A model generated the notes under the pieces. That model was not told where the DNA came from. It made no database searches and worked only from the letters and a program-made list of their open reading frames with translations. Made by a program: the position numbers and the translations under genes. From a virus: a stretch of 12,454 nucleotides of DNA. The stretch lies in UHGV virus genome UHGV-0202589; one strand, 5' to 3'. Position 1 is the first letter of the stretch, and each line of letters begins with the position of its first letter. This document shows positions 1-2,715 of the stretch, piece by piece.

Positions 1-255
1 ATGCTAAGTATTGCAGAGTTTTTTGCACATCCTTTTGTGGTGGCAGTTGGCTATTTGGTTTCTTTTGTCTCTTCCGTTATCGCTATTTATCAGTTTGTGA
101 AAGCGAAGAGACTTGGTTCTGAGCTTAATGAGTTAAATATTAAATATCAACAGAAGATCCTTAGCGGAATAGGGGAGCAGAATGTTAGCCAGGGCGATAG
201 GTCACAGTATTTCCATACCAATACTGGCTCTGTGAATATTGATAATAGGGGGTAG
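1..255 (+). CDS. Small single-pass membrane protein, 84 aa: an N-terminal TM helix (about residues 5-32) followed by a polar C-terminal tail. It is the first gene of the AT-rich cargo operon.
   Basis: The ORF has a strongly hydrophobic N-terminal stretch, FFAHPFVVAVGYLVSFVSSVIAIYQFV. An SD sequence AAGGAGG lies at 12444..12450, across the circular junction, 4 nt before the ATG. GC is about 35% with AT-rich codon usage, continuous with the downstream genes. Confidence 0.5.
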   Translation: MLSIAEFFAHPFVVAVGYLVSFVSSVIAIYQFVKAKRLGSELNELNIKYQQKILSGIGEQNVSQGDRSQYFHTNTGSVNIDNRG

Positions 256-262
256 AGCCTAT

Positions 263-811
263 ATGGGACAGGTTCAGTTTGATGGTAACCAAGGGGCGGT
301 GACAATTATAAATGATACCAAGTCTGTGCCTCGTCCTTCGATTCTTGGACGTCTTGTTGAAATTATCGCATTAGGGGACTGTGACAGTCGCTCTCTAGAT
401 AGGTTACCTTCAGAAATTGAAGAAAAGATTGACTTTAATGATTTAAAGAGATGCCGCTGGGTGGTGGATCAGTATGTTGAATCGTCAATTCTGATTGGCG
501 AATCGGTGAAGGAGTTGAATAGAACTATATTGAATGGTGGTACTAAGCTTAAGAGGCAGATGAATAATTTTTACAAAACTTCATTGGCTAAATTTTCAGT
601 ATTAGGGAGGACTTTTAATTTAACGAAGTTAAGGGAGTGCTCGGATGATATAGTTATGGATGTTATACAGCAAACAAAGGAGTATGTTAAGAGTTCCTCT
701 TCTCTAATGGAGGGCTACTATGCTGAGGATATAGATTTTGGGGTAAACCTTATCGTGAGTTTCGCTATTATTGAGTGTGTTGTTTTGGAGAATGAGTATG
801 CTCACGCTTGA
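263..811 (+). CDS. Hypothetical protein, about 182 aa, with no motif I can recognise by eye. It is a candidate effector or sensor component of the cargo module.
   Basis: The ATG at 263 is preceded by GGGGG (247..251). The track ORF 239..811 would start at a TTG. The 3' end overlaps the next ORF. Composition is AT-rich, like its neighbours. Confidence 0.5.
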   Translation: MGQVQFDGNQGAVTIINDTKSVPRPSILGRLVEIIALGDCDSRSLDRLPSEIEEKIDFNDLKRCRWVVDQYVESSILIGESVKELNRTILNGGTKLKRQMNNFYKTSLAKFSVLGRTFNLTKLRECSDDIVMDVIQQTKEYVKSSSSLMEGYYAEDIDFGVNLIVSFAIIECVVLENEYAHA

Positions 812-1028
812 TTCTGACCCTGTTTTGAATCCGGTTAATATTGGGGCGGAATTGATAAGTTTTATGTTGAGCAAGGAAAGCAATAGATTTCAATTAGATG
901 ATCTGTATCGATTTGTTCAAGGGCGATTTTCAGTATCGTACGATGTTTTCGCTTACACTATGGATTGGCTCTACCTAATAGGTGCAGTAGATATGGATGA
1001 GCGGGGAGTGGTTCAGTATGCGCCTTAA
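792..1028 (+). CDS. Small helical protein of about 78 aa, possibly a winged-helix fold. Its size and position suggest a middle component or adaptor preceding the ATPase.
   Basis: In-frame ATGs lie at 792 and 798, with GGAG at 787..790. It overlaps the upstream gene stop (809..811) and the downstream ATPase start (1018), which suggests translational coupling within the operon. Confidence 0.45.
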   Translation: MSMLTLDSDPVLNPVNIGAELISFMLSKESNRFQLDDLYRFVQGRFSVSYDVFAYTMDWLYLIGAVDMDERGVVQYAP

Positions 1029-2715
1029 TAAGGTTCTAGTGGTAAAGAATGGCGATGTTTTGCGGGAGGTTTTTTTTAATGATGGGCTTAATTTAATTAT
1101 AAATAAAAGCTCTGGTGTGGAGAGGACAGGAAATAGCGTTGGGAAGTCTACTCTTTCAAGAGTTTTGGATTATCTCTTTTTGTCTGACGGCGAAGACATA
1201 TATACCGAGCCGGAATTTGGTCGATTGATACCTGAGGTACACAGTTTTATAGAATCGAATCAGATAACTGTATTTTTAGATTTTATAGGTTTGGATAATA
1301 GTAATCATGTGATAGGGCGAGAATTAACTGTTAGGCAGGCAAGTTCTTTTTTTATAGTCAATAGTGAAACAGTAAGTCGTCGGGAGTATATGGATTTTGT
1401 GGCGCAAAAGGTTTTCGGTTTGGTAACTGAAAAACCTTCGCTTCGTACTGTTGTGCACAAATTTATTAGAAATACGCATGAAAAAATGCAGAAGACAACT
1501 CGTTTTTTGCATGTGAATACTAAGCCTGATGTTTATGATCAGTTGTATTTGTTTTTATTTGGTTTTGGTGCGCTTGGTTTGTTGCGTGATAAAGCTATCT
1601 TGAACAATAAAATAAAAACGAAAAGGAAACATCTGGCTGCTTATAGGGATCCATATAAGGAGTCGGCGCTGGAGAAAATGCTGGCTCCTTTAAAAGACGA
1701 AGAGCGGATTATTCAGGAGAAAATTGATAATTTTGATTTTTCCGATAGTCAAGAAGATAGTGTGCAAGAACTCGTTCAGATTCAACGCCTGATCTCTGAG
1801 TTGACTATTGAATATTCGACTTATCTGTCGCGCGTTGACTATCTGCGTAGGTCTATCGAAAGTTTGAAGGAGAATGCGGCCAAGGTAGATGGCCGAGAAC
1901 TATCATCTATTTATAAAGATGCTGGCGTTTCGATCAGTAGTGAGTTGAAGCGGTCTTATGAAGACTTGGTTGCTTTTCATAATAGGCTTATTTCAAATAA
2001 GATTAACTTGATTAGTCGAGATATAATTCGGTATGAGGACGCTGTTTCGGAATTAAAGGGCAAGATAGAAGATATGCATCTTGCTGAAAGTCGAGTATTC
2101 AAAGGTATTAAAGAACCCGAGATTTTGAAGTCGATAGGGCAGGTTTATAATGAGCTCTCTGATGTAAAAGAGCGAATGGCTGCGATTGGTGCTTTGCTTG
2201 AAAAGATTCAAGATGCCAAAGAGATCATAGCGTCTTTAGAGGGTTCTAAGGCTGCAATAGTTAGTGAGATTTCTCGTAGTGCTGATGAGTTCAATAATAA
2301 TGTAGCGATCTTTAATAAAGAGTTTAGTTCTCTAAGTAAGCTTTTTTATGGCGAGAGGTATCTTTTTGATCTAGAGTTTGATGTGGAAGAAGAGAAGTGT
2401 GTATTCGATATAGCTAGTGTCAGTCCTAATTCAACAGGGGGAAAGAAAAAGGGAGAGTTGAGTGCTTTTGATTTGGCATATATTAAATTTGTGCGCGAGG
2501 TTGGTTTGCGGCGGCCGACATTTGTTATACATGATAGTATAGAAGATGTGGATGTTAACCAGGTGTATGATATATTTACCGCTGCTAATGGTATTCCGGG
2601 GCAGTATATAGTTGCTGTTTTGAGCGATAAAATTTCTGATTCAAGATTTGAAGGGCTGAAAGATGGCTCTGTAATTTTAGAACTGTCGGAGGCAGACAAA
2701 TTCTTCAAGATTTGA
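1018..2715 (+). CDS. ABC-type ATPase of the SMC/Rad50/RecF/RecN superfamily with a long central coiled coil, 565 aa. It is a candidate ATPase of an ABC-three-component or Lamassu-like conflict system.
   Basis: The N-terminus MRLNKVLVVKNGD...FFNDGLNLIIN...TGNSVGKSTLSRVLDYLF matches the ABC N-terminal strand-loop-Walker A pattern (F..GLN.I.G.NG.GKS). About 300 aa of charged heptad-like helical sequence follow. The C-terminus has GELSAFDLAY (a degenerate signature-like region) and RRPTFVIHDSIEDVD (Walker B plus D-loop). The ATG at 1018 has GGGGAG 9 nt upstream; ATG 997 is an alternative start. Confidence 0.75.
   Translation: MRLNKVLVVKNGDVLREVFFNDGLNLIINKSSGVERTGNSVGKSTLSRVLDYLFLSDGEDIYTEPEFGRLIPEVHSFIESNQITVFLDFIGLDNSNHVIGRELTVRQASSFFIVNSETVSRREYMDFVAQKVFGLVTEKPSLRTVVHKFIRNTHEKMQKTTRFLHVNTKPDVYDQLYLFLFGFGALGLLRDKAILNNKIKTKRKHLAAYRDPYKESALEKMLAPLKDEERIIQEKIDNFDFSDSQEDSVQELVQIQRLISELTIEYSTYLSRVDYLRRSIESLKENAAKVDGRELSSIYKDAGVSISSELKRSYEDLVAFHNRLISNKINLISRDIIRYEDAVSELKGKIEDMHLAESRVFKGIKEPEILKSIGQVYNELSDVKERMAAIGALLEKIQDAKEIIASLEGSKAAIVSEISRSADEFNNNVAIFNKEFSSLSKLFYGERYLFDLEFDVEEEKCVFDIASVSPNSTGGKKKGELSAFDLAYIKFVREVGLRRPTFVIHDSIEDVDVNQVYDIFTAANGIPGQYIVAVLSDKISDSRFEGLKDGSVILELSEADKFFKI

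Follow-up and report, generated by a model that had tools for sequence, protein, structure and literature searches.

A four-gene cassette and its products

The window analysed here is the whole 12,454 nucleotides (nt) of the virus genome UHGV-0202589, and it begins with a cassette of four co-oriented genes, related to the Lamassu defence systems and carried by a Pf filamentous phage, which is the subject of this work. An earlier reading of the bare sequence, which we call the original prediction, had reported four overlapping or tightly spaced genes at this place, and all four open reading frames (ORFs) do lie there on the + strand. The cassette and its flanking signals comprise the following features:

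1..255, + strand: ORF1, 84 amino acids (aa), protein with one transmembrane (TM) segment
263..811, + strand: ORF2, 182 aa, ATG start; LmuA-like protein with a CTD10 domain only
792..1028, + strand: ORF3, 78 aa, ATG start; MC6 middle component, LmuC-type
1018..2715, + strand: ORF4, 565 aa; LmuB-like SMC/Rad50-type ATP-binding cassette (ABC) ATPase of the YydD/DUF2326 family
12360..12454, + strand: AT-rich leader (34.7% GC) directly 5' of ORF1 once the genome is circular or integrated; presumed promoter region
2722..2740, no strand: GC-rich hairpin AGAGGCGC-AAA-GCGCCTCT, read from the sequence

ORF1 and ORF2 are separated by a gap of 7 nt, whereas ORF2 and ORF3 overlap by 20 nt and ORF3 and ORF4 by 11 nt. 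The start of ORF4 at 1018 was preferred because 27 homologues align from there, while the upstream ATG at 997 would give a protein of 572 aa. ORF3 has an alternative start too, as the ORF listing extends it to a TTG at 771. Regarding the signals, a Shine-Dalgarno sequence (AAGGAGGG, 12444-12451) lies 3 nt before the ATG of ORF1 at base 1. A scan for the sigma-70 consensus upstream of ORF1 gave no match and the promoter is therefore assumed. The hairpin lies 7 nt past the stop codon of ORF4, between ORF4 and a convergent gene (2770-3105, - strand), and is possibly a bidirectional terminator which marks the right edge of the cargo; it was not called in the terminator scan because it has no T-run.

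ORF4 is an ABC ATPase of the SMC/Rad50 kind, as the original prediction had recognised, and Pfam, the AlphaFold2 (AF2) model and Foldseek agree on this point. Its Walker A motif GNSVGKST occupies residues 38-45 (nt 1129-1152), a signature-like STGG residues 472-475 (nt 2431-2442), and the Walker B motif plus D-loop, FVIHDSIEDVD, residues 502-512 (FVIHD at nt 2521-2535); GNSVGKST, STGG and FVIHDS are invariant across 28 ORF4 homologues. In the AF2 model (pLDDT 81) a coiled coil of around 260 residues joins two half-heads, and there is no CxxC zinc hook. ORF4 thus has the features by which an LmuB is known, namely the Walker A motif, the signature, a Walker B motif of the form hhhhD[Q/S/T/E] and a coiled coil inserted between the halves of the head. 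The C-terminal head matched Pfam DUF2326 with 49.3 bits (cutoff 28.7) and the full-length protein matched PDC-M68B of PADLOC (1.2e-38) and phrog_5467 (5e-32). Furthermore, the source databases label the homologues of ORF4 as 'YydD (DUF2326 family)'. The original prediction had also suggested modelling the ATPase alone and comparing its fold, and in this comparison by Foldseek the YydD protein of Bacillus subtilis came first (9a6c_A, 1e-16, 16% identity over the alignment), followed by SMC and Rad50 heads and by solved LmuB chains (9uxh_F, 9ux7_A, 9hqx_B and 9hqu_A, with E values from 1e-9 to 3e-8 and TM scores of about 0.46-0.50).

ORF3 matched Pfam PF20293, MC6, with 41.7 bits (cutoff 27.2) and MC7 more weakly, and MC6 is annotated at the ORF3 position in all related loci. 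A middle component (MC), or LmuC, belongs to one of the Pfam families MC1-MC8 and is encoded between the effector and ATPase genes, which is what we found for ORF3.

ORF2 had to be placed through its family. With a profile built from 16 homologues of ORF2, 174 clusters were retrieved from 1.84 billion representative proteins, and most of them are stand-alone proteins with a length of 180-225 aa. The longer relatives, few in number, are fusions of SMEK_N to CTD10 (P0237, P0262, P0285) or of HNH to CTD10 (P0245, P0261, P0273); most of these fused proteins score above the Pfam cutoff for CTD10 (38-68 bits, within 29.7-68.2 bits for the retrieved proteins that pass it), and they sit in operons of the order CTD10-MC6-DUF2326. 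ORF2 and its CTD10 relatives also have in common a conserved C-terminal ending, ...ECxVLExP. It is thus the family profile that places ORF2 among the LmuA-type C-terminal domains (CTD1-CTD12), the window protein on its own being below the threshold. Around 20-40 residues precede the CTD and no domain match was found for ORF2 as an effector in Pfam, PADLOC, NCBIfam or PHROG; the relatives bear HNH or SMEK_N in place of the missing domain. Judging from these relatives, we regard ORF2 as a genuine CTD10-type C-terminal domain of LmuA that has no effector domain. The original prediction had expected a new effector chemistry from the 182-aa protein, an expectation we abandon: the protein would be an adaptor or oligomerisation domain of the CTD10 type, and what its relatives place before this domain is HNH or SMEK_N. 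Nevertheless, the resemblance with ABC three-component (ABC-3C) and Lamassu systems noted there is real homology, supported by MC6, DUF2326, PDC-M68B and the CTD10 family.

The small membrane protein and its mirrored peptide

ORF1 was given no role in the original prediction and is actually the most informative component of the cassette. An N-terminal TM helix (around residues 11-33, nt 31-99; hydropathy 2.2 over 19 residues) is followed by the basic residues KAKR, so that the C-terminus is predicted to be cytoplasmic. Beyond KAKR come a short helical linker and a conserved tail, QGDxSQYFxxNxGxVxIDNRG. A word-indexed search with ORF1 found no homologues and its relatives were recovered through synteny, the position being checked in the 28 loci of the main clade (L007-L034); in one of them, L031, ORF1 looks truncated. 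These homologues share the TM helix, the basic residues after it, the helical linker and the invariant tail. No family was found for ORF1 in Pfam, NCBIfam or PHROG, although its conservation shows that it is no artefact of gene prediction. In PADLOC, residues 2-33 weakly matched the '1TM' effector model of CBASS (E=0.0023), a match which spans the TM helix only and hence is not evidence of homology. We propose that ORF1 is a membrane effector or anchor encoded in trans.

The four genes travel as a unit. In 28 of the 29 loci compared, which represent over 20 genera of Gamma- and Betaproteobacteria, ORF1-4 follow one another in this order and their overlaps are unchanged; among the taxa are Aeromonas, Pseudomonas, Undibacterium, Vibrio, Enterobacter, Photorhabdus, Colwellia, Crenothrix and Methylophilaceae, and the cassette proteins are conserved at 30-65% identity across these genera. 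Four IMG/VR contigs also bear ORF1-4. Most copies are in chromosomal islands rather than phages, and where the surroundings are not Pf they include a restriction-modification specificity subunit, ArdA, integrases and TrbL, which are typical of mobile and defence islands. An ORF2 protein identical to that of the window appears in 209 indexed blocks of the assembly collection, its 90%-identity cluster spans 117 contigs, and every place listed for the identical protein is a Pf prophage of Pseudomonas aeruginosa.

Outside this main clade we examined six divergent effector-less CTD10 operons (L035, L036, L041, L047, L049 and L050), whose ATPases or CTDs are distant from those of the window (ATPase identity of about 28-34% where measured). 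All six have a TM protein of 76-98 aa directly upstream, as do about 27 loci of the main clade. In contrast, the SMEK_N- and HNH-fused CTD10 operons have no TM gene in this position; a non-membrane 76-aa protein or an apparent helix-turn-helix (HTH) protein is found there instead. The TM gene is found in just those operons that do not have the enzymatic effector domain, which is what one would expect if it encoded a replacement effector and not a general localisation factor.

Some particular loci deserve a comment. In L035 (Halodesulfovibrio aestuarii) the ATPase is split into ORFs of 327 and 201 aa (5001-6696), either as a pseudogene or by a sequencing frameshift, and the other three genes are intact. 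The most divergent version, on the viral contig L047 (4891-5136), encodes a small protein apparently with two hydrophobic segments, in which the tail motif described below is kept. One of the fused operons, the SMEK_N-CTD10/MC6/DUF2326 operon of L037 (1388-7976), has the gene of a 506-aa reverse transcriptase (RVT_1) on one side and that of an SMC_N/AAA_21-like ATPase with a 241-aa partner on the other, an arrangement that resembles a defence island.

The tail of ORF1 has a counterpart in ORF2. The motif F71-x2-N-x-G-x-V-x-I-x-N82 of ORF1 (nt 211-246) recurs with identical spacing as F6...N17 of ORF2 (nt 278-313), and both copies are invariant within their respective families. When the alignments of the two families were compared by hhalign, ORF1 69-83 against ORF2 4-18 was the single best local match (P=1.5e-4). 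The motif varies between clades, yet it agrees within each operon, as can be seen in the pairs of L047 (QKSGSHSKNNQTVVFGNN vs QRSGNYSRNVQVVVDSN) and L041 (SNSGIVLGVNSGDVYN vs SNFGTVVGENSGSIVN); the pairs of L049 (NTGSNSGVIAGNV vs NSGDNSGVIANTV) and L050 (VKDSPNSYIAGGDINV vs VNNSPNSLVSGRDVYV) are mirrored by eye. In a 6x6 Smith-Waterman matrix the cognate pair was the top-scoring one in four of the six clades. Shuffle tests gave p<0.0005 for L041 and L047, 0.001 for L011, and 0.02-0.03 for the window and L035.

The Pf backbone and the cargo slot

The window from 2786 to around 11991/12044 is the backbone of a Pf phage (Primolicivirus), 95-98% identical to Pf1, PfAC11 and phage 54-4. The similarity to other Pf phages starts at 2786-2792, and the records of other Pf phages end at, or remain similar as far as, 11985-12044. 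For positions 1-2785 there was no near match among 50,697 phage records, and a distant-match search of 72,556 plasmids with positions 1-2790 was negative. Relative to the prophage, the window is circularly permuted: in P. aeruginosa chromosomes its last 531 bases (11924-12454) lie directly 5' of base 1, and therefore the cargo consists of about 12045-12454 plus 1-2785. The features which delimit the slot are these:

11990..12044, - strand: attP core, left edge of the cargo slot; 3' fragment of tRNA-Met, from the anticodon loop to the CCA end
11983-11958, - strand: terminator hairpin of 11 bp with a T-run, directly after the attP tRNA fragment (terminator scan)
2770-3105, - strand: Pf-conserved 111-aa protein, phrog_5121 (9e-63), between cargo and repressor
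3161-3445, - strand: repressor, phrog_147 (PHROG match)

The GC content is 38.6% over 1-2715 and 62.9% in the Pf core (3552-11461), a drop of 24 points; the contrast that the original prediction had described is thus confirmed, although its figure of 35% for the cargo was slightly low. The backbone, the position between attP and the repressor and the foreign composition all place the genes in the accessory slot of Pf, where they had been predicted to lie. The cassette is therefore foreign, horizontally acquired cargo of a tRNA-Met-integrating Pf prophage of P. aeruginosa, inserted between attP and the repressor.

A search for whole tRNAs in the window found no complete tRNA gene. The attP fragment, read directly off the sequence, looks like tRNA-Met, which is a known attachment site of Pf phages (PMC11878078). 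As both the 3' part of the tRNA and a terminator are found at attP, the phage would restore the 3' end of the tRNA and its terminator upon integration.

Other observations were made along the window. The stretch 12045-12454 (410 nt) averages 45.6% GC and includes a segment of about 315 nt (12045-12359), between attP and the AT-rich leader of ORF1, that other Pf phages do not have. Two small overlapping ORFs, of 51 aa (- strand) and 63 aa (+ strand), lie at 12104-12359, and a Pfam search with them gave no family match. The end segment 11924-12454 is only 98.1% identical to the P. aeruginosa locus L001, in contrast to 99.99% for the next 10.8 kb. On the other side, the protein encoded at 2770-3105 has a signal-peptide-like N-terminus (MRAVASTIVLLTLCGFAYA), and the GC content of its gene, 51%, is intermediate between cargo and core. 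Between the repressor and a divergent excisionase-like gene (3552-3824) there is an overlapping, operator-like palindrome of 22 nt (TGAGTAATATTCACTCATGAGT / ACTCATGAGTAACTGTTACTCA, at 3476-3509). Imperfect GGC-rich direct repeats of 15-24 nt at 6775-6950 code for a Gly/Asp/Asn-rich linker of the CoaA (g3p-like) coat protein. A 159-aa ORF with hydrophobic segments (11442-11921, - strand; phrog_15254, 3e-98) overlaps the integrase gene, which is encoded on the other strand, at the 3' end of the latter. An Rfam scan of the window gave no match. Finally, in six P. aeruginosa loci (L001-L006, around 8530-9125) a HigB-like toxin and an HTH antitoxin are encoded just outside attL, between a TonB-dependent receptor gene and the cassette-bearing Pf prophage.

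Proposed mechanism, alternatives and known systems

Lamassu systems are present in around 10-15% of prokaryotic genomes. In the solved Lamassu complexes one LmuA is held through its CTD on an LmuB dimer with LmuC, and DNA ends or replication intermediates release it; the released LmuA then oligomerises through the CTD, which activates the effector domains and leads to abortive infection (Li et al.; bioRxiv 10.1101/2025.06.23.660979). We consider it probable that the cassette is a four-gene member of the short Lamassus, in a branch made of CTD10, MC6 and YydD/DUF2326, and that ORF1 acts in it as a membrane effector in trans, bringing about abortive infection. The homology of three components, the synteny of the four genes, the mutual exclusion between the TM gene and a fused effector and the co-varying motif were observed here and support this reading; by analogy with the solved complexes we infer the formation of a complex, its trigger, the contact between ORF1 and ORF2, the damage to the membrane and a phage-resistance phenotype. 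The sequence of events would be as follows:

i) The ORF4 dimer, together with ORF3, would keep ORF2 sequestered.

ii) Upon the sensing of foreign DNA structures (ends or replication intermediates, for example), ORF2 would be freed and would oligomerise through its CTD.

iii) ORF2, which has no enzymatic domain, would pair its N-terminal peptide with the cytoplasmic tail of ORF1.

iv) The TM helices of ORF1 would then cluster, the inner membrane would be permeabilised or depolarised, and the cell would die before the phage cycle is completed.

A more general proposal is that the 'effector-less' branch of Lamassu uses a separate small membrane effector, recruited by a peptide on the ORF1 tail and the N-terminus of the CTD adaptor that co-varies from clade to clade; this we put forward tentatively. 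If it is true, it would be a new coupling of an SMC-type DNA sensor to membrane killing, through a swappable effector interface addressed by a peptide, and on a chronic filamentous phage that must avoid triggering its own cargo. The CTD-only LmuA branch has been noted but left unexplained, and the co-conserved partner with its mirrored peptide gives a concrete hypothesis of how it may kill. To our knowledge, nuclease effectors are the only ones for which the activation model of Lamassu, in which LmuA is released and oligomerises, has been established. With this cassette, the defence cargo spread by Pf prophages among clinical P. aeruginosa comes to include a Lamassu-family system, which bears on resistance to phage therapy. 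The cassette also raises the question of how a rolling-circle phage with single-stranded DNA tolerates a sensor of aberrant DNA structures.

Several results weigh against the membrane-effector reading. Regarding the peptide, the shared motif is only 12-20 residues long, the shuffle test for the window's own pair reached just p = 0.03 and the pair of L036 was not significant in this test; as the single-pair statistics are modest, the argument rests on the recurrence of the motif across clades, and the contact between ORF1 and ORF2 would be deduced from these peptides. Regarding the ATPase, none of the PADLOC LmuB models matched ORF4 at E<=1, and sequence searches against PDB, with the single protein or with a 28-sequence profile, returned coiled-coil noise only. 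Sister DUF2326 ATPases, from the SMEK_N and HNH-CTD10 operons, do match the LmuB models (3e-11 and 4e-7), so the link of ORF4 to LmuB is by fold and transitive only. Regarding ORF2, its score against Pfam CTD10 is below the cutoff (19.2 vs 28.1 bits), and its AF2 model is all-alpha but poor (pLDDT 64) and found no match in PDB. The Pfam and PADLOC searches that the original prediction had suggested were thus rewarding for MC6 and DUF2326, both above cutoff, and for PDC-M68B, but not for LmuB or CTD10. Furthermore, the defence role rests on homology and context, and protection against phages or plasmids by this clade was not reported in the literature searched. As for novelty, a TM partner of CTD10 systems may have been described earlier by Krishnan et al. 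2020, the source of the definitions of ABC-3C, CTD and MC.

Finally, ORF1 could anchor rather than kill, and this is the main rival. ORF1 would then be the membrane anchor of ORF2, ORF3 and ORF4, for example at the place of DNA entry, and the toxicity would come from ORF2 oligomers or from a host factor. The single TM helix of ORF1, with a cytoplasmic tail that is the mirror of the N-terminus of ORF2, fits tethering as well as it fits killing, and the protein is very small and belongs to no pore-forming family that could be recognised. Nevertheless, a TM gene that occurs only where the enzymatic domain is missing, and is absent when HNH or SMEK_N is fused, suits a replacement effector better, and other Lamassu systems function with no membrane anchor; we therefore judge anchoring to be unlikely.

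Two further explanations are disfavoured because the intact unit is widespread outside phages and the cargo of the slot is interchangeable. The cassette might serve Pf itself, in superinfection exclusion, prophage maintenance or addiction, or the control of Pf replication. The slot does adjoin the repressor, the identical ORF2 is found in P. aeruginosa only in Pf prophages among the places listed, and Lamassu responds to replication intermediates and palindromic DNA, which rolling-circle phages with single-stranded DNA make. However, many genera have these four genes where no inovirus is near, and close Pf relatives hold other cargo at this place (Retron, Kiwa, ShosTA, Gabija, Avs or toxin-antitoxin (TA) systems), so the module is interchangeable and not tied to the biology of Pf, and a Pf-specific function appears quite improbable.

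Slightly less probable still is that the cassette is a degenerate or decoy Lamassu, an anti-defence sponge for the LmuA of the host, or an inert remnant. This idea draws on the absence of an effector domain from LmuA here, as in the clade of Haudiquet et al. that 'seemingly lost the effector domain', and on the speculation of Li et al. that phages could evolve decoys which sequester liberated LmuA. A decoy, however, would need neither LmuB, LmuC nor a membrane protein, and all four ORFs are intact (apart from the apparent truncation of ORF1 in L031) at the identities given above across more than 20 genera, mostly in chromosomal islands and with invariant catalytic motifs in the ATPase; the number of collection blocks with the ORF2 of the window and of contigs in its cluster, every place listed being a Pf prophage of P. 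aeruginosa, also speaks against this reading. The last explanation, that ORF4 is a housekeeping repair ATPase like RecF, RecN or SbcC among unrelated neighbours, which the original prediction, with RecF and RecN as examples, had named as its own refutation, was rejected as practically negligible: the fold is a generic SMC/Rad50 one, but no NCBIfam housekeeping model was matched (the best, an archaeal SMC-related model, gave 19.9 bits against a cutoff of 300), the best folds are YydD and then LmuB, the three neighbours are ABC-3C components strictly co-conserved with it, and the GC contrast sets them apart.

The membrane-effector reading can now be compared with what is known. ABC-3C is the Lamassu superfamily (PMC10586767; bioRxiv 10.1101/2025.06.23.660979), and a second, diverged sub-family has CTD6-12, MC2-8 and a small LmuB (Li et al.). 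The ATPases of the short Lamassus have around 600 aa and a Walker B motif of the form hhhhD[Q/S/T/E], HNH and SMEK are effectors specific to them, and their Clade O, which comprises over 100 sequences from over 40 species, is described as having 'seemingly lost the effector domain' (Haudiquet et al., bioRxiv 10.1101/2025.04.02.646746). The 'candidate novel system' of the original prediction was therefore an overstatement, since the superfamily was established and an effector-less clade had already been flagged in that preprint. The family of the window resembles Clade O in that an effector-less LmuA with intact LmuC and LmuB stands among HNH and SMEK short Lamassus. The two may be the same clade, although the text of the preprint does not contain CTD10, MC6, DUF2326 or Pseudomonas; a membrane or transmembrane partner is not mentioned in it either.

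The gene order of the cassette is that of the type II or short Lamassus (LmuA-LmuC-LmuB), such as DdmABC of Vibrio cholerae and LmuACB of Salmonella enterica. ORF4 is like the short Lamassu ATPases in size (565 vs around 565-600 aa), in its Walker B motif FVIHDS and in its fold, which is near to the LmuB chains, and like the Vc-Cap4 clade it has no zinc hook. Unlike the short Lamassus with CTD7 and MC3, the cassette has MC6 and a CTD10 with neither Cap4 nor another enzymatic domain. Moreover, a fourth gene, that of the 1-TM protein, is obligatory in this branch.

The PDC-M68 system of PADLOC, an HNH-CTD10 protein with a DUF2326 ATPase, is an HNH-fused cousin of the cassette. Its M68B model is matched by ORF4 and its M68A models by the HNH-CTD10 and SMEK-CTD10 relatives of ORF2 (P0245, P0237), whereas ORF2 itself gave no match to PDC-M68A, so that the cassette falls outside PDC-M68. 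The latter has a fused nuclease and no TM gene, and its ATPases are 25-27% identical to ORF4. The YydB-YydC-YydD genes of B. subtilis, the ABC-3C locus from which the YydD/DUF2326 family has its name, are related through YydD, the best structural match of ORF4 in spite of its 16% identity; YydB is an effector protein of the phosphoesterase type. Nothing functional on YydD was found in the literature searched, and likewise nothing useful on PDC-M68 or DUF2326.

Regarding the place of insertion, in PfAC phages the stretch between att and the repressor is occupied by Retron, ShosTA, Kiwa, Gabija, IetAS, Avs and TA systems, and no Lamassu is reported in that survey of Pf (PMC11878078). In filamentous or tailless prophages of Vibrio, LmuB and ABC-three-component genes have been drawn in the variable locus (PMC11630473). 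The position of our cassette is the same as that of this defence cargo, but the cassette itself is absent from all the phage records searched. A last likeness is with the 1TM and 2TM effectors of CBASS, in which a short protein with an N-terminal TM helix is also encoded beside the gene of a cytosolic sensor; unlike the nucleotide signal of CBASS, the coupling of ORF1 would be a protein contact with the CTD adaptor. Therefore, the Lamassu/ABC-3C kind of the system and the presence of defence cargo in the Pf slot are already known, and what is new is the presence of this cassette on a Pf phage, among the deposited phage records searched, together with sequence evidence which suggests that systems of the effector-less CTD10 branch comprise four genes, with a membrane partner encoded in trans that would be addressed by a mirrored peptide.

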